Assembly (NCBI GenBank): GCA_051881675.1
Contig: JBJEQI010000270.1
Location: forward strand, 1-25,413
Length of the DNA stretch: 25,413 nucleotides
Direction: 5' to 3'
Origin: Acutalibacteraceae bacterium
GTDB lineage: Bacteria > Bacillota > Clostridia > Oscillospirales > Acutalibacteraceae
Of this stretch, positions 1-17,324 are shown piece after piece. Numbering within the stretch: position 1 is the first letter of the stretch; each line of letters opens with the position of its first letter. A program made the translations under genes and the position numbers. The notes under the pieces were generated by a model. The model saw only the letters and a list, made by a program, of their open reading frames with translations. It ran no database searches and was not told where the DNA came from.

Positions 1-39
1 ACTCCTTCTGTTTTTAAAATGCAATAGTTTTTTAAAAAA

Positions 40-957
40 TTACCGCTTTTTCTTTTTTCCTTGCGAGTTATTTTCTACCATAGCGGTCTTTTCGTCGTAT
101 TCCGCGATAATATCCCGTGCGCGTTTTCTATGGCCGGGGTGGGTGCCCTTCGACACGAGCGTAACATCTTTGACATTATACGAAGCGGGGGCGGAATCGC
201 TGTTCCCGTTGATATGCACCTTGACCTTGCCCGCGATCAGTCTGACGTCGGTTACAACGCCTCTGCCGTCGGGCGTGTCAACGACCGCGCCCTGACCCGG
301 CGTTTCGCGCAGCAGCTTTTCATAGGTATCATGCTCATATTTCAGGCAGCACATCAGCCTGCCGCAGGAGCCGGAGATCTTAGTCGGATTGGGGCTGAGG
401 CCCTGCTCTTTCGCCATTTTGATCGACACGGGCTGGAAATCGTCCAAAAACCGCGCGCAGCAAAACGGCTGACCGCAGATGCCGACGCCGTCGAGCATCT
501 TTGCCTCATCGCGCACGCCGATCTGGCGCAGCTCGATGCGGGTATGAAACTCGGAAGCAAGCGCTTTTACCAGCTCGCGGAAATCAACTCTGCCGTCGGC
601 GGTGAAGAAAAAGACGATCTTGCTGCCGTCGAATGAGTATTCCACGCCCGTCAGCTTCATATCCAGCTTAAAATCCGCAATCTTTTTGGTGCAGATGCTG
701 TACGCCCGCTTTTCCTTTTTCAGATTGTCCTCATAGCGCGACTCATCCTGCGCGGTGGCTTTGCGGACAATGCTTTTCAGCGGTTTAACGATCTTATCGT
801 CCTCGAGCATCTTATTCGCCATCGAAACTCGGGCACACTCAATGCCGCGCGCCGTTTCGACGATGACCGCGTCACCGACGGAAAACCGCTCGTTTTTCGG
901 CGAAAAATAATAGATTTTTCCTGTATCTCGAAATCGTATGCCGATAATTTCGGTCAT
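40..957 (-). CDS. yaaT: PSP1-domain protein, stage 0 sporulation family YaaT/RicT
   Basis: N-terminal 'IGIRFRDTGKIYYF', 'YSFDGSKIVFFFTADGRVDFRELVK', 'RIELRQIGVRDEAK', Cys motifs GICGQPFCC and GSCGRLMCCLKYE; lies downstream of holB as in Firmicutes. Confidence 0.95.
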   Translation of the reverse strand: MTEIIGIRFRDTGKIYYFSPKNERFSVGDAVIVETARGIECARVSMANKMLEDDKIVKPLKSIVRKATAQDESRYEDNLKKEKRAYSICTKKIADFKLDMKLTGVEYSFDGSKIVFFFTADGRVDFRELVKALASEFHTRIELRQIGVRDEAKMLDGVGICGQPFCCARFLDDFQPVSIKMAKEQGLSPNPTKISGSCGRLMCCLKYEHDTYEKLLRETPGQGAVVDTPDGRGVVTDVRLIAGKVKVHINGNSDSAPASYNVKDVTLVSKGTHPGHRKRARDIIAEYDEKTAMVENNSQGKKKKR

Positions 958-1049
958 GCTGTTTTACCTAAAACGCGCTTTCCACGCGCTTCCTTTCTTT
1001 GTTTTGATTAAAATCACCGCACGGCGATGTCAACATTCGCGCCGACATG

Positions 1050-1101
1050 ATCGCCGAAGAGATCGCGATACTATCGCCGAAGTGATCGCGATATTATCGC
1101 C
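1050..1101. repeat. 23-bp tandem repeat (ATCGCCGAAGwG-ATCGCGATAyT) x2 plus a partial unit
   Basis: Read directly: ATCGCCGAAGAG ATCGCGATACT ATCGCCGAAGTG ATCGCGATATT ATCGCC; begins at the holB stop codon. Confidence 0.85.
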
Positions 1102-1960
1102 CTGCCGCCGCTTTCAGGCTCGCGCACAGGCGAGTGACGTTCAGCTGCGCGTTGGCGTTCGCCGCCGCGGCGTCGCCGATGCTGTCCGCCGCCTCGCACA
1201 TTGCAAGCGCGGTTTTCAGCGTGATCGCGCCGAGCAGCTCGGGAGAAACGGGGGGAATCGGCACGGTATCATTCAACTGTGCGCCGCTTTTCAGGCAGTA
1301 GGCTTTGCGAAAAATGCTTTTCAGCGCGCTCAGCGTATCGTTCAGCAAAGCGCGGTCCTTTGTCAGCGGCAACGTCATGCGGATTAGCTCGTATTCGGAC
1401 CGATTGAACACGCAGTCGATCATTTCCGCCGCCAGCTCGTTCGCCGCCTGCGAAATACTGCTTTTCGCCGCGCCGCAAACGATCACGCTGACCCGCGAGA
1501 TGACGGTATCCAGCAGCATTTCCTTGCGGTTGCAGCAGATAATGAACATCACGCTCTCCGGCGGCTCCTCTATGATCTTCAGCAGCGCGTTCTGCGATAC
1601 AACGCTGATATTGTCCGCATTGGTAAAGATATAGACTTTCCTTCGCGCCTCGTTCGGCTTGATATATGCCTCCCTGCGGATTTCGCGCACAAAATCGACG
1701 GGGTACGGGTTATTCGGCTTTTGCGGCTCGAGATAAATAATGTCGGGGTGATTTTTGGTCTGTGCTTTCAGGCAGGGGCCGCACTTCCCGCAGGGAATCG
1801 GCTCCTCTCCCGCTTCCGCCTCCGCGCAAACCGCCGCCGCGGCAAGATATTCCGCATTTTCGGCGGCATATTCCCCCTCGAGCAAAACGGCGTGAGGGAT
1901 ATTTTTATTCTCGATAAGCGCGGTCAGCGCCGAACTGATATGTTCGTTTCCCGCCATCAC
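1094..1960 (-). CDS. holB: DNA polymerase III delta' subunit
   Basis: Zn motif C...PCGKCGPC, NHPD, 'EARRKVYIF', 'SQNALLKIIEEPP', 'TVISR'; darA-holB-yaaT synteny. Confidence 0.9.
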   Translation of the reverse strand: MMAGNEHISSALTALIENKNIPHAVLLEGEYAAENAEYLAAAAVCAEAEAGEEPIPCGKCGPCLKAQTKNHPDIIYLEPQKPNNPYPVDFVREIRREAYIKPNEARRKVYIFTNADNISVVSQNALLKIIEEPPESVMFIICCNRKEMLLDTVISRVSVIVCGAAKSSISQAANELAAEMIDCVFNRSEYELIRMTLPLTKDRALLNDTLSALKSIFRKAYCLKSGAQLNDTVPIPPVSPELLGAITLKTALAMCEAADSIGDAAAANANAQLNVTRLCASLKAAAGR

Positions 1961-2262
1961 ATTTTTTCAAAACGGTCGACATCGAGCACAAAAACCGTGG
2001 CTCCGCCCACCGTCACCTGACCGTGTTCCGCGCCGCTGCCTGCGCCGCCCATCAGCTGCATACGCCTGCTGGAATGAAGCTTGATCAGCTCGAGTACGCC
2101 GTCCACCCTGTCCTCGTCCACGCCGAGCAGGAAAGTGGTGTTCTCCAGATTCAAAAATCCGCCAGCACTCGCCATTTTTGTGGCGGGATAGCCGTTTTGC
2201 AGCAGCGCATTCCCCACAGCGAAAGCGTCGTCATCGTTGACGATGGCAATAATCAGTTTCAT
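1957..2262 (-). CDS. darA: Cyclic-di-AMP receptor, PII-like DarA/PstA/YaaQ family
   Basis: 'MKLIIAIVNDDDA', 'ASAGGFL...NTTFLLGV', 'VTVGGATVFVLDV'. Start placed at ATG 2262 because GGAGG lies upstream; the 160-aa ORF-track call is over-extended. Confidence 0.9.
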   Translation of the reverse strand: MKLIIAIVNDDDAFAVGNALLQNGYPATKMASAGGFLNLENTTFLLGVDEDRVDGVLELIKLHSSRRMQLMGGAGSGAEHGQVTVGGATVFVLDVDRFEKM

Positions 2263-2389
2263 ACAAATAAACCTCCCGTCAAGGCGTCGGATACACATTC
2301 GGGCTAAAAAGATCTGCCCGTTCGGCGGCAAACCGCCGCGCGCAATCATTTTACACGGAACAAACCCGCTTATATGCTTATACATTTTA

Positions 2390-2418
2390 ATTATACCTTG
2401 TTTTCGGCGATTAGTCAA
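2390..2418 (-). promoter_or_regulatory. Sigma-A promoter for darA-holB-yaaT
   Basis: TTGACT-N17-TATAAT on the minus strand. Confidence 0.8.
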
Positions 2419-2450
2419 CCAAACGGGCGCGGAATTCACAACATTTTCAT

Positions 2451-2500
2451 AAAAAATAACCCCGCCCGCGGGAAAATTCGCCGCCGACCGAGGTTATTTT
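2451..2500 (-). terminator. Probable intrinsic terminator after the dockerin gene
   Basis: Minus strand AAATAACCTC...GGGGTTATTT stem followed by a T-tract. Confidence 0.6.
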
Positions 2501-2571
2501 GCTGAATATTTTCAATTTTTTACAATACGGGAAAAATTCGCATTCATCTCGCCGCGGCGGGCAAACGCCGT

Positions 2572-4128
2572 TTATGACGCTTTTCCGAATTCAACGTCCA
2601 TACCTGCCAGATGCTGCCTGATCAGCAGAACGTCTGAAATATTCACGCTTCCATCGCCGTTGGCGTCGGCGTTTCGCATATCAATATCAGTGCCTGCACC
2701 CGCAAGATGACCTCTGAGCGCCAAAACATCCTCGATATTGATCTTGCCGTCGACATTCACATCTCCGTAATCGGGCGAATGGACAACTATCTCCAGCGGC
2801 AGATTCTGAATGAGCGCAGGCGTGACATTCGCGCACTGTTTATCATAGACCAAGCTGTCGCCGACGATCGCCAGGCCGTAAAGGCACTCGTTATTTTGCA
2901 GCTCGGGCTTCGCCACCTCGGTCACCGCGCCTGTTTTGATATCGTACTGCTTGACAGAATCGACGGTAGTAAACCAAATCGTATCCTTATACGCGGCAAG
3001 GCGCGCATATCTTGCGCTGTCCCAGACGGTGTAGCTGTTGCCCTGATAGTTCCACTTGCCGTCCGGATTGCTCAAAATCACACTGCTCTCGCCCGTCGCT
3101 TCGTTCTGCCAGACGAGATTACCGTCTTCGAAATAATAGAAACTACCGTTTCTCGCATAGATCTGCGTCGGAGTTGATCCTTTGAAATCCAGCTCGTCGT
3201 ATCTATCCGAATCCGCCGAAACCGCCGACACCCAGCCGTGGTGCGCGCGATTCTCAGCACATTCATCCGACATCAGAAAAAACGTATGCGAAACATAGCC
3301 GTTGACATTATAATGCACCGAATCCGCTTGACCTACCCGCGAATCGTCCCAAGTCACATCGACATGATAATACTTGCCGTCGAGGCGAACCATGTTCCAA
3401 ACGTGATTCATCTCGTCGCTTTCGGCAAAGCTTGAGTGGATGCCGCAGCGGTCAAGCAGCGCAATATACGCAAGCGTGTATCCCTGGCAGACGGCGGCGC
3501 GGTTGACCAGCGCGCCGTAAGCAGTATAAGATGCATCGGGAACGGCAGTTCCGTTGTATAAATTACTGTCGTATTCGCAGTTCAGCGCAAGCATATCGTG
3601 CAGGGTCAGCGCCTTGGCAAAATCGGTCATGCTGTCGTCGACACTGCTGAGCATATTGTCCAAAGCGGCTTCATACTCCTTGATCATCGGCTCGCGAACG
3701 TCAGGGGCGACGGTATAGATCGGGTAGATTTCCGCGATATATGCTTTGTCCTCCGAAAGGCCGATATAAAAGGGCCGATCGAGATAAAAGCAATCGGGAT
3801 TGGCGAAAAGCGCGCTGCTGTAAACGCCGGATATATCGCCTGCGGGAATGTTGAATCTTGACACGTCGATCACGTCGGCGTTATTGCGCCAGCCGTTGCC
3901 GATCACGCGGCAGACCTCGTCGAGATCGTATCCGCTTTGAGCAGCAGGCGCATCATACAGCTCCACGGTAACAGCGACCGCGTCTGACGGAATCGCCGAT
4001 GACGGGACTGTCGGCGCCGACACTGTCGCAGCCGATACGGGGCAAAGCATGACCGACAATGCGATCACCGCGCCCACCGACATGCCGAGCAATCTTTTCA
4101 ATGATCTGACAATTGTTGTTTTCCTCAT
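2572..4128 (-). CDS. Secreted transglutaminase-like (Cys-His-Asp) protein with C-terminal type I dockerin
   Basis: Signal peptide ending 'PVSAA'; triad motifs AVCQGY, HVWN, YYHVDVTWD; two Ca-binding dockerin repeats YGDVNVDGKINIEDVLALRGHL and NADANGDGSVNISDVLLIRQHL (about 2600-2769). Start ATG 4128 chosen from the GAGG SD. Confidence 0.88.
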   Translation of the reverse strand: MRKTTIVRSLKRLLGMSVGAVIALSVMLCPVSAATVSAPTVPSSAIPSDAVAVTVELYDAPAAQSGYDLDEVCRVIGNGWRNNADVIDVSRFNIPAGDISGVYSSALFANPDCFYLDRPFYIGLSEDKAYIAEIYPIYTVAPDVREPMIKEYEAALDNMLSSVDDSMTDFAKALTLHDMLALNCEYDSNLYNGTAVPDASYTAYGALVNRAAVCQGYTLAYIALLDRCGIHSSFAESDEMNHVWNMVRLDGKYYHVDVTWDDSRVGQADSVHYNVNGYVSHTFFLMSDECAENRAHHGWVSAVSADSDRYDELDFKGSTPTQIYARNGSFYYFEDGNLVWQNEATGESSVILSNPDGKWNYQGNSYTVWDSARYARLAAYKDTIWFTTVDSVKQYDIKTGAVTEVAKPELQNNECLYGLAIVGDSLVYDKQCANVTPALIQNLPLEIVVHSPDYGDVNVDGKINIEDVLALRGHLAGAGTDIDMRNADANGDGSVNISDVLLIRQHLAGMDVEFGKAS

Positions 4129-4289
4129 AACGAAGCATCCTCTCTGTAAAATGATTGCCGTGCGGCGAATTTGCGCAGTCAGCGCGCGGCGCAACGCGGC
4201 GCTGTTTTACGCTGTTTATTCTCCGCATACCAAAACCGATAGTTCACGTCCGAAATCGGGGCGCAATATCGGTTAATTCTCTGATTCTG

Positions 4290-5183
4290 TTATCCTTTGC
4301 GGTGTTCTTCCGACTGCTGATCGCTTTGCAGCGAATTCGCGCAATCTGCGCCGCTCTTCGCCGCCGCACGCCTGCGGTAAACGATCGCCGCCGCTGCCGC
4401 AAGCGCAATGACCGCCGCTATAATCAACCAAAGATACCGCGCGCGGCTTCCGCCCGCACGGTTCGGCTCACCGCCCGCCGCACCGCCCTCGGGGGTGATC
4501 ACGTTGCCGTTTTTATCGGTCTGCGTTTCATAAGTTGAGCCGCCCTCGGAAGAGCTGCCCGATAAGCTATCGGACCCGCCGCCCGACGCATTCCCCTCAG
4601 CCGAGCCACTATCCGCACCCCCGGCGGCACTGCCGCTCGGTGCGGCACCGCCCGCAACGGTAACCGTTCCGCTCGAATAGGTGAAATCAACATACTTCGA
4701 GTCCACATTCATGGGTCTGCCGTCTGTTCTAAAAGCCGCGCCGTTCGCCTGCGTCGCGGTTTCGTCCACCGCGGCGACCGATACGGCATACTGCCCGCCC
4801 ACGGCGGTTTTGCTCACCCGAAAGGTCAGATCCATCAGCTTGCCTGTGTTGATATTGTCGGCGATCTTTGTATTGAAAACGCTGATGCGGACCTGCCCGC
4901 TCCTGTGCGTCAAAATAAACTCGCCCTCGCGGAAGACGTCGCCGTAGCTCACGCTGTCGAACGTCAGCACGGTCGGGTCATAATTCACCACCAGCGCCAT
5001 TCCGAAGATACCGGGGTTTTTATCCATATTCAGCGGCACGGTAACGCGCTCGCCTGCATTCGCTTGCGCACTGCCGACGGCGATCGCGCCGCCCTCGGCG
5101 GCAAACGCACCGACATGACAAAGCAGCGCCGCCAACACAGTCAGCATAAACGCCGCTATCCATGATCTTATCCGCTGTTTCAT
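4290..5183 (-). CDS. Single-cohesin protein with signal peptide, G/S-rich linker and C-terminal transmembrane anchor
   Basis: Cohesin-like beta-sandwich 'IAVGSAQANAGERVTVPLNM...GMALVVNYDPTVLTFDSV...TGKLMDLTFRV...GQYAV...SGTVTV' (about 4655-5090); C-terminal 'LWLIIAAVIALAAAAAIVYRRR'. Start ATG 5183 with GGAGA SD. Confidence 0.8.
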   Translation of the reverse strand: MKQRIRSWIAAFMLTVLAALLCHVGAFAAEGGAIAVGSAQANAGERVTVPLNMDKNPGIFGMALVVNYDPTVLTFDSVSYGDVFREGEFILTHRSGQVRISVFNTKIADNINTGKLMDLTFRVSKTAVGGQYAVSVAAVDETATQANGAAFRTDGRPMNVDSKYVDFTYSSGTVTVAGGAAPSGSAAGGADSGSAEGNASGGGSDSLSGSSSEGGSTYETQTDKNGNVITPEGGAAGGEPNRAGGSRARYLWLIIAAVIALAAAAAIVYRRRAAAKSGADCANSLQSDQQSEEHRKG

Positions 5184-5253
5184 GATTCGATCTCTCCTCA
5201 TGCGCCCGCGCGCCGAACGGTCGGCAAAACGGGCAGGGCGCCCTGACTCTGCG

Positions 5254-6543
5254 TTAAACGGCGCCCGCCTGATCGGCAGGCTCGTCGTCCACAGTGACCC
5301 TGCGGATATTCGCGCCGAGCGCCGTCAGCTTTTCCACATAATTTTCATAGCCGCGGTCGATAATATGAATATTCTCGATCTCGGTCGTTCCCTCAGCCAT
5401 CAGCCCCGCGATGATCATCGCCGCGCCCGCGCGCAAATCAACCGCTTTTACGGGTGCGCCGACGAGCCTGTCCACGCCCTCGATGACGGCGGTATGGCCG
5501 TTCACCTTGATCTTTGCGCCCATGGCGGTGAGATAATCGACATACTGAAAACGGTTGTCAAAAATCAGCTCGTTTACGATCGAAGTGCCCTCGGCGGCGG
5601 TCAGCAGAGTGGTGATCTGCGGCTGCATATCGGTCGGAAAGCCGGGGTGCGGCATCGTTCTCACACTGCATCCGCGCAGCGCGCCGTTTGATATGACGCG
5701 AATCGAATCGTCCGACTCGATGATAGTAACGCCCGCTTCCTCCAGCTTGGTGCTGATCGCCTCCATATGCTTGGGGATGACGTTTTTCACCAGCACATCG
5801 CCGTGCGTTGCGGCGGCGGCTGCCATATAGGTTCCCGCCTCGATCTGATCGGGAATGATGGAATAATTGGTGCCGTGCAGGCTCTTTACGCCGTAAATTT
5901 TGATAACATCGGTGCCCGCGCCGCGAATATCCGCGCCCATCGAATTGAGGAAATTCGCCAGATCGACAATATGCGGCTCTTTGGCGGCGTTGTCGATCAC
6001 GGTCATTCCCTCTGCCTTGACAGCGGCGAGAATAATGTTGATCGTTGCGCCGACCGAAACATTATCCATATAAATAGACGCGCCGATCAGCCGATCGGCT
6101 TTGATGTCGACCATGCCGCCCGTCATCTCAACGTCCGCGCCGAGCAGGCGAAAGCCCTTGGTATGCAGGTCGATCGGGCGCACGCCGAAATTGCAGCCGC
6201 CGGGAGGGGCGACCTGCGCCTTGCTGAATCTGCCGAGCATAGCGCCCATAAAATAGCACGAACCGCGGCTGAGCTTGGTCAGCGAATAAGGCACGACATG
6301 AGTGCGAATGCCGCGGGTGTTGATCACGACAGTGGATTTATTGAGAAATTTAATATCCGCGCCTGTTTCGTGAAGAATACTGATGATGGAATGAACGTCG
6401 GCGATGTCGGGTACGTTTTCGATCCTGCAATCTCCCTCGGAGAGAACGGTTGCCGTGATAATGGCAAGCGCGGCGTTTTTCGCCCCGCTGATCGTCACTT
6501 CACCTTTCAGCGGAGAAGCTCCGTTGATCACGAGTTTTTCCAA
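5254..6543 (-). CDS. murA: UDP-N-acetylglucosamine 1-carboxyvinyltransferase
   Basis: 'ISGAKNAAL', catalytic Cys loop 'PGGCNFGVRPIDLH', 'PHPGFPTDMQ', 'DLRAGAAM'; TTG start with GAGGAG SD. Confidence 0.97.
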   Translation of the reverse strand: MEKLVINGASPLKGEVTISGAKNAALAIITATVLSEGDCRIENVPDIADVHSIISILHETGADIKFLNKSTVVINTRGIRTHVVPYSLTKLSRGSCYFMGAMLGRFSKAQVAPPGGCNFGVRPIDLHTKGFRLLGADVEMTGGMVDIKADRLIGASIYMDNVSVGATINIILAAVKAEGMTVIDNAAKEPHIVDLANFLNSMGADIRGAGTDVIKIYGVKSLHGTNYSIIPDQIEAGTYMAAAAATHGDVLVKNVIPKHMEAISTKLEEAGVTIIESDDSIRVISNGALRGCSVRTMPHPGFPTDMQPQITTLLTAAEGTSIVNELIFDNRFQYVDYLTAMGAKIKVNGHTAVIEGVDRLVGAPVKAVDLRAGAAMIIAGLMAEGTTEIENIHIIDRGYENYVEKLTALGANIRRVTVDDEPADQAGAV

Positions 6544-12987: not shown

Positions 12988-14412
12988 TTATTTCAGCAAA
13001 CTGATCGCGTCGGTGATCGTCTTTTCCAGCGCTTCCTCGCCGTATTTATCGACCTCGGCCTTGTTCTTTTCGCCGTGGGTCAGGCAGCCCGCGCCGCCGA
13101 TACAGCCGCCGACGCACGCCATACCCTCGATAAAGTTGCCGGGGAGCACGTTCTTGGACGCTTTCAGCAGCGCCATGCGGCACTGCTCGATACCGTCGCA
13201 GGGAACGGCTTTCAGCTCGAAATCGTCCAAGCCCTGCTCCTTGAGCGCCTGCGCGACCGCGTCGGACAGGCCGCCGCTGCGGGCAAAGATTCTGCCGTAA
13301 TACGACGCATTATCGAGGTAGTCCTCCTCCAGCGTCGTGATGTCAATATCCTTGCCGTCAAGAAGCGCCTGAAGCTCCTCAAAGGTAATGGTCGAGTCGA
13401 TATACTGCTTCAGCTCCTCGCGCGAGAATTCGGCTTTTTTCGCCGTACACGGCCCGATAAACACGATCTTCGCGTCGGGAGTCGTTTCTTTGATATATTT
13501 CGCGATGGTCGCCGCGGGCGAGAGATTATGCGAGATATGCTCGTTCAGCGCGGGGAACGCCTTATGGATATAGTCGACAAACGCGGGGCAGCAGCTGCTG
13601 GTCAGAAATCCCTTTTCGGTCAGCTCGCGCGCCTCGGCATAGGCGACCATATCCGCGCCGAGCGCCGCCTCGACCACGGTGAAGAAGCCCAGCTCCTTGA
13701 TGCCCGAAATGACCTGCCCGAGCTTGGCATACTGAAACTGGCTGGAGATCGAGGGCGCGACCAGTGCAAACAGCTTGTAATTTTTATTATTATCGCTTTT
13801 TTGAATCAGGTCGATGACGTTGAGGATAAAGGATTTATCCATGATCGCGCCGAACGGGCACTGATAGACGCACGCGCCGCAGGAAATGCACTTGGAATTA
13901 TCGATCGCCGCGGCTTTGGACTCGTCCATCGTGATCGCTTTCACCTTGCAGGCGCGCTCGCAGGGGCGCTTGTTGTTGGCGATCGCGGAATAAGGGCAAA
14001 CCTTGGCGCACATACCGCATTCGACGCATTTGGTCTTGTCGATGATCGCTTTCTGATTGCTGTCAAACGAGATCGCGCCTTTTTTGCAGGCGTCCTGACA
14101 GCGGTGCGCGATACATCCGCGGCAGGCGTTTGTCACCTCATAGCCGCCGACGGGGCACTCATCGCAGGCAATGTTAATACATTCCACAATGTTCGGGTTG
14201 TTCTTATCGCCGCCCATGGCGAGCTTGATGCGCTCCTGAACGATCGCGCGCTCCTTGTAAACGCAGCAGCGCATGGTCGGCGTTTTGCCGGGAACGATCG
14301 TTTTCGGAATGTCGTTGACCGTTTCAAGCAGCTGCCCGCGGAATGCCTGGCGGGCGACCTCACGGAGAACTTTATATTTCAGATACTGTACCTGTGTGTC
14401 AAATTTTCTCAT
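12988..14412 (-). CDS. Monomeric [FeFe]-hydrogenase, group B type (HfsD-like position)
   Basis: H-cluster motifs TSSCCPAF, IGPCTAKKAE, EGMACVGGCIGG; N-terminal ferredoxin motifs CRGCIAHRCQDAC, CVECGMCAKVCP, CISCGACVYQCP. Confidence 0.92.
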   Translation of the reverse strand: MRKFDTQVQYLKYKVLREVARQAFRGQLLETVNDIPKTIVPGKTPTMRCCVYKERAIVQERIKLAMGGDKNNPNIVECINIACDECPVGGYEVTNACRGCIAHRCQDACKKGAISFDSNQKAIIDKTKCVECGMCAKVCPYSAIANNKRPCERACKVKAITMDESKAAAIDNSKCISCGACVYQCPFGAIMDKSFILNVIDLIQKSDNNKNYKLFALVAPSISSQFQYAKLGQVISGIKELGFFTVVEAALGADMVAYAEARELTEKGFLTSSCCPAFVDYIHKAFPALNEHISHNLSPAATIAKYIKETTPDAKIVFIGPCTAKKAEFSREELKQYIDSTITFEELQALLDGKDIDITTLEEDYLDNASYYGRIFARSGGLSDAVAQALKEQGLDDFELKAVPCDGIEQCRMALLKASKNVLPGNFIEGMACVGGCIGGAGCLTHGEKNKAEVDKYGEEALEKTITDAISLLK

Positions 14413-14488
14413 AGCAGAGAGTCCTTTCGGTCATGAATAGGTTCGGGGGCCGGCAAACGCCTTAAAGCGCACCCGCGCGCCCGATTGA

Positions 14489-15661
14489 TTAAAAATAGCT
14501 AACCTTGATCTGCTTGCCCATGCGCTTCAGGCAGTCGGCAAGCTCGTCGACCAGCCGCATTTTAATATTGAAATTGATCGGCAGATTCGGGTTCTGGTGG
14601 GCGGGGTTAACCGCTCTGCCCACGAAGAAGTTGATGTCGGTTGCTTCCTCGAAAAGCATCCGCGCGATCAGCGACGCGCCGTCGCGCGAGCCGCTCCATT
14701 TCTGATACATCCCGTTGTCGCCGAGAAAATCCTTGGCATATTCCAAAACGCGGTTGATAGTAATAACGCCCTCGGTGACAAGATCAACGCCGTCGATCTC
14801 CGCAATCGGCGGAATATCGGGGTCGATATAGTCCATTTTCGGCACGACCCTTTTGCGCAGATATTTTGCCGCGATCGTGGAGGTGGTTCCGCCGCAGACG
14901 ATATGCTTGCCTTGCTTTGAGAAAAACAGCGACATCATCTTATCGCAGTCGTTGCGGTCGGCGGGCGGACCGATCATCAGATTCATCGGCTCGCGGCGGC
15001 GAATCCTAACCGTGCAGACGGTGGTATCGTCCCCCGGCTCGCCGCCGTAAAGCCGCACACACTCATCCAGCAGAATGGTAGTCAGCGTTTTCGCAGTAAA
15101 GCCGACGTCGTAAAAGGTCTGCATATACTCGGCGATCTGGTCCCGCTCCCAGCCGAAGTTCAGCGACATCCCGACGCCCGCGTGTATCGCGCCGTCGCTC
15201 ATCGAGATGAAAATGTCGCCCTCCTGCACCTTGATTTTCGAGGAAAAGATCGCTTTCCCGCCGATGTTCATTTCGGTTTTGGGGTATTCGTGCACCTCGC
15301 CGTCGCGCAGCAAGATCACCATCGGGTTATCGTACTGAATCATCTCGACATAGTCGTTGTCGACCAGGCGAAGGATGGTAAAGGTGGAATATGCCGCCTC
15401 GCGCACCTTGCAGATCGGCAGGGTGGCGGCGATCGTTTCAACGCAGTCGGTAATGTCCATCCCCTGCGCCATCATGGTCGATATGATCTTCGAGGTGAGG
15501 GTGGAAAGAATGCACGCCTTGACCCCGCTTCCCATGCCGTCGGCAAGCACGATCAGGGTAGAACCGTCTTCGCAGTCGACAATATCCACATGGTCGCCGC
15601 AAAGCTGCTCGCCCTGCTTATTGACGCTTTTATAGCCGATATCCGCGCACAAATCATTCAT
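14489..15661 (-). CDS. SpoIIE/PP2C-like Ser/Thr phosphatase (HfsC-like)
   Basis: 'EQLCGDH', 'LADGMGSG', 'MSDGAIHAG', 'GDDTTV'; C-terminal 'VCGGTT' extension; overlaps the 3' end of the upstream hydS. Confidence 0.92.
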   Translation of the reverse strand: MNDLCADIGYKSVNKQGEQLCGDHVDIVDCEDGSTLIVLADGMGSGVKACILSTLTSKIISTMMAQGMDITDCVETIAATLPICKVREAAYSTFTILRLVDNDYVEMIQYDNPMVILLRDGEVHEYPKTEMNIGGKAIFSSKIKVQEGDIFISMSDGAIHAGVGMSLNFGWERDQIAEYMQTFYDVGFTAKTLTTILLDECVRLYGGEPGDDTTVCTVRIRRREPMNLMIGPPADRNDCDKMMSLFFSKQGKHIVCGGTTSTIAAKYLRKRVVPKMDYIDPDIPPIAEIDGVDLVTEGVITINRVLEYAKDFLGDNGMYQKWSGSRDGASLIARMLFEEATDINFFVGRAVNPAHQNPNLPINFNIKMRLVDELADCLKRMGKQIKVSYF

Positions 15662-17324
15662 CGGTGACCTGCTCCTTCAGTTTGGTAAGCGCAATTTTGG
15701 TTTCGGCGGCAGTTTCGCCGAGCAGCGAGGCGATCTCCTGAACAATCCGCATCTGCTTATCGACGACCTTGTCGGCGATATCCACCGTTTTGCGGCTGAC
15801 CTCTTCCTTGCGCTCGCGCTGGTTCTCCTCGACCGTAACGTCGCGCATAATGCACATCAGACTGCGGAACTCCTGATCGTAAACGATCGTTTCCTCGATA
15901 TATTTTTTATACTCCGCCAGATAAACGCGCTTGTCGGTAATATGCGCGCCGGACTTCGCGTCGATGAAATCCTTGGGGTCCATAATGCGGATGACCTGCT
16001 CGCCGATCACGTCGGACGCCTGCCGCAGATTCATAATCCTCAGCGCCGCCTTGTTGATCTGCTGAACCTCCAGATCTTCATTCAAAATGATAATGCCGTT
16101 GGGCGTATTGCCAATAATATTATCCGAAACGCTTTCCGCCCGATCCTTGAGGAACGGCAGACACATCGACAAATCCGCCTTGCCCTGATAAACGGCGATC
16201 GCTTTTTCGCGGCAGGTATTGTAGCCGCACGAGCCGCAGTTCAGCTCCTGCGAGGGCTTGGTCTTGCCCATTTGGCGGAGAATCGCCGCGATCTCGCTCT
16301 CCGAGGGAATCCTTTGCTGTTTGTCGATAAACTTGAAGTTTTTATGCAGCTCATCCTTGGACGGCATATCCACCTCGAAGTCGTTTTTGCCCGCATAACT
16401 CGCTATGCTGACATAATCGCGCACGGGCGAGCGGTGATATTTTTCCATAACGGGGCCGTTGATACAACTGCCCGCGCAGGCGGACATCTCGATAAAGCAA
16501 TGCTTCAGCCCGCCGTTTTGAATGTCGCGCAACGCCGACATACAGTTCTCAACGCCGTCTACCGCGAGGTATGTATAGCCCTCTTCATTGCAATCCATGG
16601 TTTTCAAGATGCCGCCCGTTGTCGGGAAGAAGCGCGCGCGGCTGTTCTCGTTTTGATCGCATTCCTTTTCGATCTCGATATTCTCATCCCGCAGCCAGCC
16701 CGACAGCTCCTCAAAGGTCAAAACGGCGTCGGTCGGACCGTAATGCGCCGCCTCGTCTTTTTTGGCGATGCAAGGGCCGATAAACACGGTTTTGGCACCC
16801 GGAATACGGCGCTTGATGTCGGCGCAGTGCGCCTGCATCGGCGAGAGAATATCCGCGAGATATTTCAGCTGCTCGGGAAAATATTTCTGTATCAGCAGGT
16901 TGACCGAGTGGCAGCAGGAGGAAATGAGAATCTCGGGCTTATCCTCGTGCAGCATACGCTCGTATTCCTTTTTGACGATGGTCGCGCCGATCGCCGTTTC
17001 CTCCGCGGAGTAAAAGCCGAGCTTTTTAAGCGCTTTTTCCAGCGACTGTATGCCCGCGCCGTCGTAATTTGCGATAAACGAGGGCGCCACGCTGGCAACC
17101 ACGGGGTCGCCGCTTTGCAAAAACACCTTGACTCGCTCGGTATCGTCGGCGATCTCTTTCGCGTTCTGCGGGCAGACAACAAAGCAGGAGCCGCACAAAA
17201 TGCACTCGTTCCCGACAATATTCGCCTGATTTCCCGAAAACCGTATCGACTTCACCGGGCAATGGCGAATGCATTTATAGCAGTTTTTGCAGTTGGACTT
17301 TTTCAGTTTGAGAAATTCTGCCAT
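15654..17324 (-). CDS. hydS: Sensory [FeFe]-hydrogenase, group C/HydS (HfsB-like), with Fe-S and PAS domains
   Basis: 2[4Fe-4S] motifs CKNCYKCIRHCP and CILCGSCFVVCP; SSCCHSV, GPCIAKKDE, EMSACAGSCING (Met-to-Gly and Met-to-Ser substitutions typical of sensory type); NCGSCGYNTC; PAS-like 'NTPNGIIILNEDLEVQQINKAA'. Confidence 0.92.
   Translation of the reverse strand: MAEFLKLKKSNCKNCYKCIRHCPVKSIRFSGNQANIVGNECILCGSCFVVCPQNAKEIADDTERVKVFLQSGDPVVASVAPSFIANYDGAGIQSLEKALKKLGFYSAEETAIGATIVKKEYERMLHEDKPEILISSCCHSVNLLIQKYFPEQLKYLADILSPMQAHCADIKRRIPGAKTVFIGPCIAKKDEAAHYGPTDAVLTFEELSGWLRDENIEIEKECDQNENSRARFFPTTGGILKTMDCNEEGYTYLAVDGVENCMSALRDIQNGGLKHCFIEMSACAGSCINGPVMEKYHRSPVRDYVSIASYAGKNDFEVDMPSKDELHKNFKFIDKQQRIPSESEIAAILRQMGKTKPSQELNCGSCGYNTCREKAIAVYQGKADLSMCLPFLKDRAESVSDNIIGNTPNGIIILNEDLEVQQINKAALRIMNLRQASDVIGEQVIRIMDPKDFIDAKSGAHITDKRVYLAEYKKYIEETIVYDQEFRSLMCIMRDVTVEENQRERKEEVSRKTVDIADKVVDKQMRIVQEIASLLGETAAETKIALTKLKEQVTDE

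Follow-up and report, generated by a model that had tools for sequence, protein, structure and literature searches.

A lone membrane-anchored cohesin as the probable common dock of dockerin-bearing secreted proteins in a small-genome gut Acutalibacteraceae bacterium

The stretch of DNA analysed here (hereafter the window) comprises positions 1 to 25,413 of contig JBJEQI010000270.1 (C270) of assembly GCA_051881675.1, a metagenome-assembled genome (MAG) of an Acutalibacteraceae bacterium with 1.51 Mb in 327 contigs and an estimated completeness of 88.7%. Its minus strand carries two adjacent, co-oriented genes. One encodes a 297-residue protein with a single cohesin domain and a C-terminal transmembrane helix (positions 4290 to 5183), and the other a 518-residue secreted transglutaminase-like (TGase-like) enzyme ending in a dockerin (2572 to 4128). 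An initial annotation of the window had located both genes correctly and had proposed that they form a non-cellulosomal, one-to-one surface display module. The display module is retained here, without a multi-cohesin scaffoldin and with a predicted membrane helix in the place of a sortase signal, and the one-to-one pairing is not: the lone cohesin is probably a monovalent membrane anchor and the common dock for all dockerin-bearing secreted proteins of this bacterium.

Across the MAG, both Pfam and independent local hidden Markov models (HMMs) counted a single cohesin against seven proteins with a dockerin. The six dockerin proteins other than the TGase-like enzyme carry a glycoside hydrolase (GH) family 3 domain (in a 1,411-residue frame open from stop to stop), a GH78 alpha-L-rhamnosidase domain, a phage-lysozyme-type (GH24-type) muramidase, an M14 carboxypeptidase-like domain (in a protein that has its dockerin at the N-terminus and also contains Fn3 domains), F5/8-type-C/FIVAR domains and Fn3 domains, respectively. 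The GH78-dockerin frame (L005; G000:C230:2634-4241) opens right after a stop codon, has neither a start codon nor a signal peptide and matches the catalytic and C-terminal domains only; it may be frameshifted, split or misassembled. All 14 dockerin repeats of the MAG have the signature N[IV]xDVLxIRxHLAG in common. The sister species (G001, 99% complete) also has one cohesin, together with 23 dockerins, and its signature is another one, NMKDVLx[LM]RK[YFH]IAG, present in all 20 of the dockerins that were read. Its cargo includes two GH5 proteins, GH16, GH9 (with an N-terminal dockerin), CE4, a BspA-type LRR protein, a beta-helix protein, a lysozyme with SH3 and several proteins of no known family. 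The two species differ at those helix positions by which, in solved complexes, a dockerin touches its cohesin. If a dock is shared and co-evolves with its cargo, one expects dockerins to be alike inside each genome and different from one genome to the next, each set accompanied by a single cohesin, and this combination of a species-specific plug type with one socket seems to be the strongest indirect argument for a common dock.

The same counts bear on the initial proposal of a dedicated pair, in which the cohesin would display an enzyme that remodels the wall or forms cross-links, expressed together with murA and tied to peptidoglycan synthesis. The two genes do lie side by side, with conserved synteny, in three genomes belonging to the genus, only 70 nucleotides (nt) without a terminator separate murA from the cohesin gene, and two of the other cargo proteins, the lysozyme and the M14 peptidase, are of wall-active types. 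However, a single cohesin faces six further proteins with the same dockerin type, and the sister species has 23 dockerins, so that the one-to-one relation is not supported; moreover, the GH3, GH78, GH5, GH9 and GH16 cargo points to glycans of the diet or the host and not to the cell's own wall. Regarding murA, the neighbourhoods of TGase-like homologues were surveyed at 80 loci, 79 of them outside the source genus, together with 11 cohesin loci in other genera (the homologues occur in Oscillospiraceae, Acutalibacteraceae, Ruminococcus and Ruminococcoides records). A murA gene was found at none of the 79 TGase-homologue loci outside the genus and at none of the 11 cohesin loci; its linkage to the pair is confined to this genus, and the suggested functional tie is not supported. 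As a whole, this explanation is quite improbable.

A more radical alternative denies any partnership between cohesin and dockerins: the dockerins would be calcium-binding stabilising modules, would bind carbohydrate or wall, or would bind a receptor of another organism, and some other ligand would be that of the cohesin. Non-cellulosomal dockerins without a known cohesin partner are widespread (cited in PMC4300822). On the other hand, the shared dockerin signatures are species-specific and each comes with exactly one equally divergent cohesin, while the conserved adjacency of the genes, the existence of fusions and all solved cohesin-dockerin precedents also speak for partnership, which leaves this alternative highly improbable. 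A complex prediction of the cohesin with residues 448-518 of the enzyme (its dockerin) scored 0.22 against a mark of 0.32 and was counted neither way. Some observations do weigh against a common dock. A MAG that is 88.7% complete and broken into 327 contigs may hide further cohesins, although the 99%-complete sister likewise shows one; the 74-residue stalk of the anchor may be short for a thick Gram-positive wall; and in other genomes the 5 kb around a TGase-like dockerin gene are free of cohesin genes at about 25 of some 30 loci.

The initial annotation had also raised the possibility that the genome holds a full cellulosome, with the two genes as ordinary members. There is one cohesin domain in the genome, and the MAG, at its completeness of 88.7%, yielded no match to GH48, GH9 or CBM3. 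The sister species, though equally limited to a single cohesin, does have GH9 and GH5 dockerin enzymes. The system therefore carries glycoside hydrolases and yet is no cellulosome, because it has no multi-cohesin scaffoldin and neither GH48 nor CBM3 was found. Within the window, no GH or carbohydrate-binding module (CBM) family was found in any large open reading frame (ORF), as the initial annotation had stated.

The cohesin was identified by sequence and by predicted fold. It matches PF00963 with 53.6 bits (cut-off 24.1; E 3.6e-14), and an AlphaFold2 (AF2) model of residues 25-180, with a predicted local distance difference test score (pLDDT) of 89.2, has the nine-strand jelly-roll beta-sandwich of cohesins. 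A Foldseek search of the PDB with this model returned cohesins for all of the top 50 matches, with TM-scores of 0.75-0.83 for the best-ranked ones, which bears out the initial reading of the beta-sandwich. The nearest are the type I cohesins of C. acetobutylicum CohA2, A. cellulolyticus ScaB, C. cellulolyticum CipC and C. thermocellum OlpA, and that of R. flavefaciens ScaC. The gene, preceded by a ribosome-binding site (AGGAGA), starts with the ATG at 5183 (another possible start lies upstream, at 5201) and has its stop codon at 4290-4292. From its translation, read directly, the protein begins with a signal peptide of residues 1-28 that ends in AFA (5100-5183, minus strand), followed by the cohesin domain at about residues 29-175 (4659-5099), a Gly/Ser/Ala-rich stalk at residues 176-249 with 20 Gly, 13 Ser and 12 Ala among its 74 residues (4437-4658), and a C-terminal transmembrane helix at residues 250-269 (4377-4436; hydropathy 2.63 over 19 residues). 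After the helix comes a polar tail of 28 residues that starts with the basic RRR (4293-4376) and is predicted to be cytoplasmic. No LPXTG motif precedes the helix, in agreement with the initial annotation, and a sortase substrate was rejected for that reason; matches to GPS-CTERM and FeoB_associated were likewise discarded, both being below threshold and located on the transmembrane helix. The protein is thus best described as a putative type I membrane protein with its cohesin outside.

To place this architecture, an exhaustive search was made with the cohesin domain alone, which returned 2,468 homologues at E<=1e-3, mostly multi-cohesin scaffoldins. Short proteins with a single cohesin, a transmembrane helix and a tail were only a few among the 149 best cohesin cluster representatives (for instance P0192 and P0247), so that a membrane-helix-anchored monovalent cohesin is uncommon but not unique. 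When the whole protein was used in a word-based search, nothing beyond its own cluster and two near relatives came up, an outcome probably due to the low-complexity stalk, which dominates the words. On a described transmembrane-anchored scaffoldin, nothing relevant was found in the literature searched.

The TGase-like enzyme starts with the ATG at 4128, with GAGAGGA ahead of it as ribosome-binding site, and ends with the stop codon at 2572-2574. Its signal peptide (residues 1-33, ending in VSA; 4030-4128, minus strand) has no lipobox, and a lipoprotein was therefore rejected. An N-terminal alpha/beta region and the TGase-like core follow at about residues 65-290 (3259-3936). The core matches Transglut_core (PF01841) with 31 bits (cut-off 23; E 3.2e-7) and the C-terminal domain matches Dockerin_1 (PF00404) with 47.6 bits (cut-off 22.9; E 1.9e-12), so that all three families expected of the pair score above their curated cut-offs. 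The catalytic triad predicted in the initial annotation is intact: C214, H242 and D257 (codons 3487-3489, 3403-3405 and 3358-3360, minus strand) are invariant in a family alignment of 17 sequences, within the motifs VCQGY, NHVWN and YHVDVTWDD. The AF2 model of the enzyme (pLDDT 77.6) has S. pyogenes TglA (9crn) as its best Foldseek match, with an E value of 3.2e-9 over 281 columns, and all three catalytic motifs are retained in the phmmer alignment to 9crn. Further matches are to 4xz7, named "TGase", and to the putative cysteine protease 3isr, and the best Swiss-Prot entry is kyphoscoliosis peptidase. Membership of the NCBIfam family MAG6410 was rejected, since the score of 84 bits against a cut-off of 450 reflects homology of the shared core only. 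In the same genome there is a second homologue of the TGase-like module, without a dockerin (G000:C207:6257-7504, minus strand; local HMM E 2.6e-21).

Between the core and the dockerin lies a beta-strand-rich, propeller-blade-like region at residues 320-435 (2824-3171), for which the initial annotation had suggested a possible beta-propeller. That suggestion stands in part. The model has about 12 strands there (pLDDT about 70-85), and a neighbouring cluster in the ESM Atlas joins Transglut_core with DUF5050, which is present in 92% of its members. The Kelch and TolB matches are weak (TM<0.35), however, and the enzyme itself has no Pfam match to DUF5050 at E<=0.1, so that a closed propeller is at most possible. 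The dockerin occupies residues 452-512 (2593-2775) and, besides Pfam, is supported by matches to PDB dockerins. Its two 22-residue repeats begin with DVNVDGKINIED and DANGDGSVNISD, have Asp or Asn at calcium-binding positions 1, 3, 5, 9 and 12, and are identical at 14 of 22 positions, including the DVL..R.HLAG helix. This near-symmetry, noted already in the initial annotation, is compatible with dual-mode binding. Regarding the chemistry of the enzyme, if the cohesin is a common dock, the most likely role, at about even chances, is that of a cysteine peptidase or amidase acting on extracellular protein or glycopeptide rather than that of a cross-linker.

These elements suggest the following model. 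The 297-residue anchoring scaffoldin would be exported by the Sec pathway and would remain in the cytoplasmic membrane by its C-terminal helix, while the flexible Gly/Ser stalk of about 74 residues would place the single cohesin outside the wall. At least seven dockerin proteins of the MAG would compete for the one cohesin site by calcium-dependent binding, and their near-symmetric dockerins could bind in either of two orientations. The TGase-like protein would be the syntenically conserved cargo: it belongs to the transglutaminase-like (papain-like) superfamily, would be secreted, has a Cys-His-Asp triad and carries a beta-blade region that may bind substrate.

The three genomes of the genus with a syntenic cohesin-enzyme pair include a close relative (L021, 87% identity) and the sister species. 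At the sister locus the order is DegV, murA, the cohesin gene with its transmembrane helix and the TGase-like dockerin gene, with holB and PSP1 slightly further downstream. In the wider survey a TGase-like dockerin gene is present at about 30 of the 80 loci, and at five a cohesin lies in the same locus: L028 (the sister species), L058, L055, L032 and L093. In L058 a gene for a cohesin with SLH domains is directly upstream of the TGase-like dockerin gene. In L032 and L093 the domains are fused in one ORF, which encodes a cohesin, four Big_2 domains, Transglut_core and a dockerin in the former (3294-6293), and a cohesin, three SLH domains, Transglut_core and a dockerin in the latter (3846-6287; its cohesin was recognised by the local HMM and not by Pfam at E 1e-4). 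Having both socket and plug, the L032 and L093 proteins could form a head-to-tail polymer or act as an enzymatic adaptor scaffoldin. The pairing of a cohesin with a TGase-like enzyme is thus recurrent in Oscillospirales and not obligatory. Starting from cohesin genes in related genomes, a dockerin gene adjoins the cohesin gene at seven of ten further loci; the neighbour is TGase-like in G028 (Coh-Big_2-Doc, then two TGase-like dockerin genes), as it is in the sister species G001, and is other cargo in G039, G012 and G028:C5. Cohesin and dockerin genes thus tend in general to lie next to each other, with TGase-like cargo as a frequent partner. At a locus from another family of the same order (L023; G039:C14), the minus strand encodes at 4784-6268 a cohesin protein of 495 residues in which Cys-rich repeats are duplicated and a transmembrane helix forms the C-terminal part; its gene overlaps by 4 nt the start of the gene for a giant protein of more than 1,594 residues with an N-terminal dockerin (3-4784, minus strand), with the same anchor logic and other cargo.

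The persistent vicinity of the two genes would also be explained if the docked TGase-like protein were part of the display machinery itself, cross-linking (by transamidation, with Gln-Lys isopeptide bonds), proteolytically trimming or releasing the anchor, the cargo or the wall peptides. In both the MAG and the sister species it is the only dockerin gene that adjoins the cohesin gene, the neighbourhoods in G028 and L058 are alike, the fusions of L032 and L093 unite the same domains, and the catalytic triad is intact and invariant; if true, such a role would account for the gene being kept beside, or fused to, cohesin genes across the transmembrane-helix, SLH and adaptor-scaffoldin anchors of the loci surveyed. 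Nevertheless, most TGase-like dockerin loci (about 25 of 30) lack a nearby cohesin, cohesin genes also lie beside dockerin genes that are not TGase-like (G039, G012 and G028:C5), and the TGase-like module is also borne by SLH, CW_binding_2, Big_2 and LRR proteins where there is no cohesin system. We know of no biochemical precedent for a TGase-like protein acting on display machinery, and regard this role as unlikely. The same module is also found on Flg_new carriers, and such interchangeable anchors would mark it as a surface enzyme.

Comparison with the two relatives indicates how the locus evolves. MurA is 99.3% identical to that of the close relative and 80% to that of the sister species, DegV 97% and 64%, respectively, and PSP1 77% in the sister species. 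The cohesin protein is 83% identical to that of the close relative and 29% to that of the sister, and the TGase-like enzyme 87% and 32%. Against the close relative, the cohesin gene has a ratio of nonsynonymous to synonymous substitution rates (dN/dS) of 0.36 and the enzyme gene one of 0.21, from which it follows that both are functional and under purifying selection. The synonymous divergence (dS) in the same comparison is 0.20 in the cohesin gene and 0.34 in the enzyme gene, with a local peak of up to 1.06 at enzyme residues 181-240; it is two to three times lower in the murA and degV flanks (0.10-0.11), and the gene downstream, for a cyclic di-AMP (c-di-AMP) receptor, is identical in the two genomes. 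The raised dS relative to the flanks suggests that alleles were exchanged, or that recombination made a mosaic, in the two surface-protein genes and not beyond them.

Several described systems resemble this one. In R. flavefaciens FD-1 there are ten TGase-like dockerin proteins, five of them with group-4b dockerins, of which four are encoded in one operon (Rincon et al. 2010, PMC2930009). The group-4 dockerins that were tested bind the one cohesin that the surface anchor ScaE carries, the symmetric ones in dual mode, and no test is reported for the dockerins of the TGase-like proteins themselves (Israeli-Ruimy et al. 2017, PMC5301203). ScaE directly binds dockerin proteins that are not carbohydrate-active, as the present anchor would, and the two systems are alike in the single-cohesin surface anchor, the SIGN-Transglutaminase-like-Doc architecture and the internal symmetry of dockerins, which here is a near-symmetry. 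ScaE differs in its LPXTG/sortase link to the wall and in being part of a large multi-scaffoldin cellulosome, whose dockerins number over 200 and have several specificities, whereas the anchor described here has a putative membrane helix and cytoplasmic tail, is the sole cohesin and faces one dockerin type. Among the structural matches of its cohesin model, type I cohesins also come ahead of the type III cohesin of ScaE. In R. albus 7 a single putative cohesin, Rumal_2328, stands against many dockerins (PMC4300822). The likeness, one cohesin to many dockerins with no multi-cohesin scaffoldin, is drawn from the genome-wide ratio; the genome of R. albus is larger, and its bearer is specialised in cellulolysis.

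Two of the PDB matches of the cohesin model, 3ul4 and 4dh2, belong to OlpA/OlpC of C. thermocellum, anchors with a single type I cohesin and SLH domains that reportedly take enzyme dockerins directly. These are, like the present protein, monovalent anchors with a type-I-like cohesin for individual dockerin enzymes, but they have an SLH anchor and are accessory to a large CipA-based cellulosome. The amylosome of R. bromii is the cohesin-dockerin system of a non-cellulolytic gut relative and organises GH13 amylases by several cohesin proteins. Here, in contrast, there is a single cohesin and no GH13 domain among the seven dockerin proteins of the MAG. A homologue of the TGase-like dockerin protein is found in Ruminococcoides intestinale (L029). 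For the enzyme part, the closest solved structures are S. pyogenes TglA (9crn) and 4xz7, both without a dockerin; 9crn has the VCxGY, HxWN and VDVTW motifs in common with the enzyme at an identity of about 15%, and no functional description of TglA was found in the literature searched.

By analogy, then, the system would work like those of ScaE, R. albus and OlpA/OlpC, and would differ from them by its membrane-helix anchor, its sole cohesin and the anchor gene being kept beside the gene of a TGase-like cargo protein. It brings no new principle, the parts and the logic being known from ruminococcal and clostridial cellulosome anchors. Its interest is rather that a small-genome lineage of gut Clostridia (about 1.7 Mb, from the pig gut) seems to arrange the enzymes that it secretes by a cohesin-dockerin system that could not be smaller, one membrane socket and one plug type, the signature of the plug having been rewritten between sister species. 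The two species, with one cohesin to seven dockerins and one to 23, may offer a natural test bed for the co-evolution and specificity of cohesins and dockerins, and the compact pair could be of use in protein-display engineering. The locus also adds to the evidence for TGase-like enzymes as habitual surface cargo in gut Firmicutes. DNA nearly identical to it was present in 20 sequencing runs from nine studies, mostly pig gut metagenomes, and none of those listed was an RNA run.

On the minus strand the order of genes is murA (5254-6543; Pfam EPSP_synthase, E 4.6e-101), a gap of 70 nt, the cohesin gene, a gap of 161 nt, the enzyme gene, a strong hairpin with a U-run, and the c-di-AMP receptor gene, which has its own promoter-like site. 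No terminator-like fold was found in the 70 nt between the murA stop and the cohesin ATG (z +0.99), in accordance with the initial annotation, and therefore read-through and co-transcription from murA into the cohesin gene are possible. The hairpin and U-run 3' of the enzyme gene (2450-2495, minus strand) resemble an intrinsic terminator and would end the transcription unit. The spacer of 161 nt between the cohesin and enzyme genes (4150-4295, minus strand) folds better than shuffled controls (z -2.0); a hairpin lies directly 3' of the cohesin stop and is followed by only two U, and it may be an attenuator or a processing site. Elsewhere in the window, at 12988-17324 on the minus strand, two [FeFe]-hydrogenase-like genes flank a gene for a SpoIIE/PP2C-type phosphatase of 390 residues. 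One hydrogenase-like protein has 474 residues with ferredoxin domains and the other 556 residues with an extra 'FeS' domain, an arrangement that resembles sensory hydrogenase regulatory modules.

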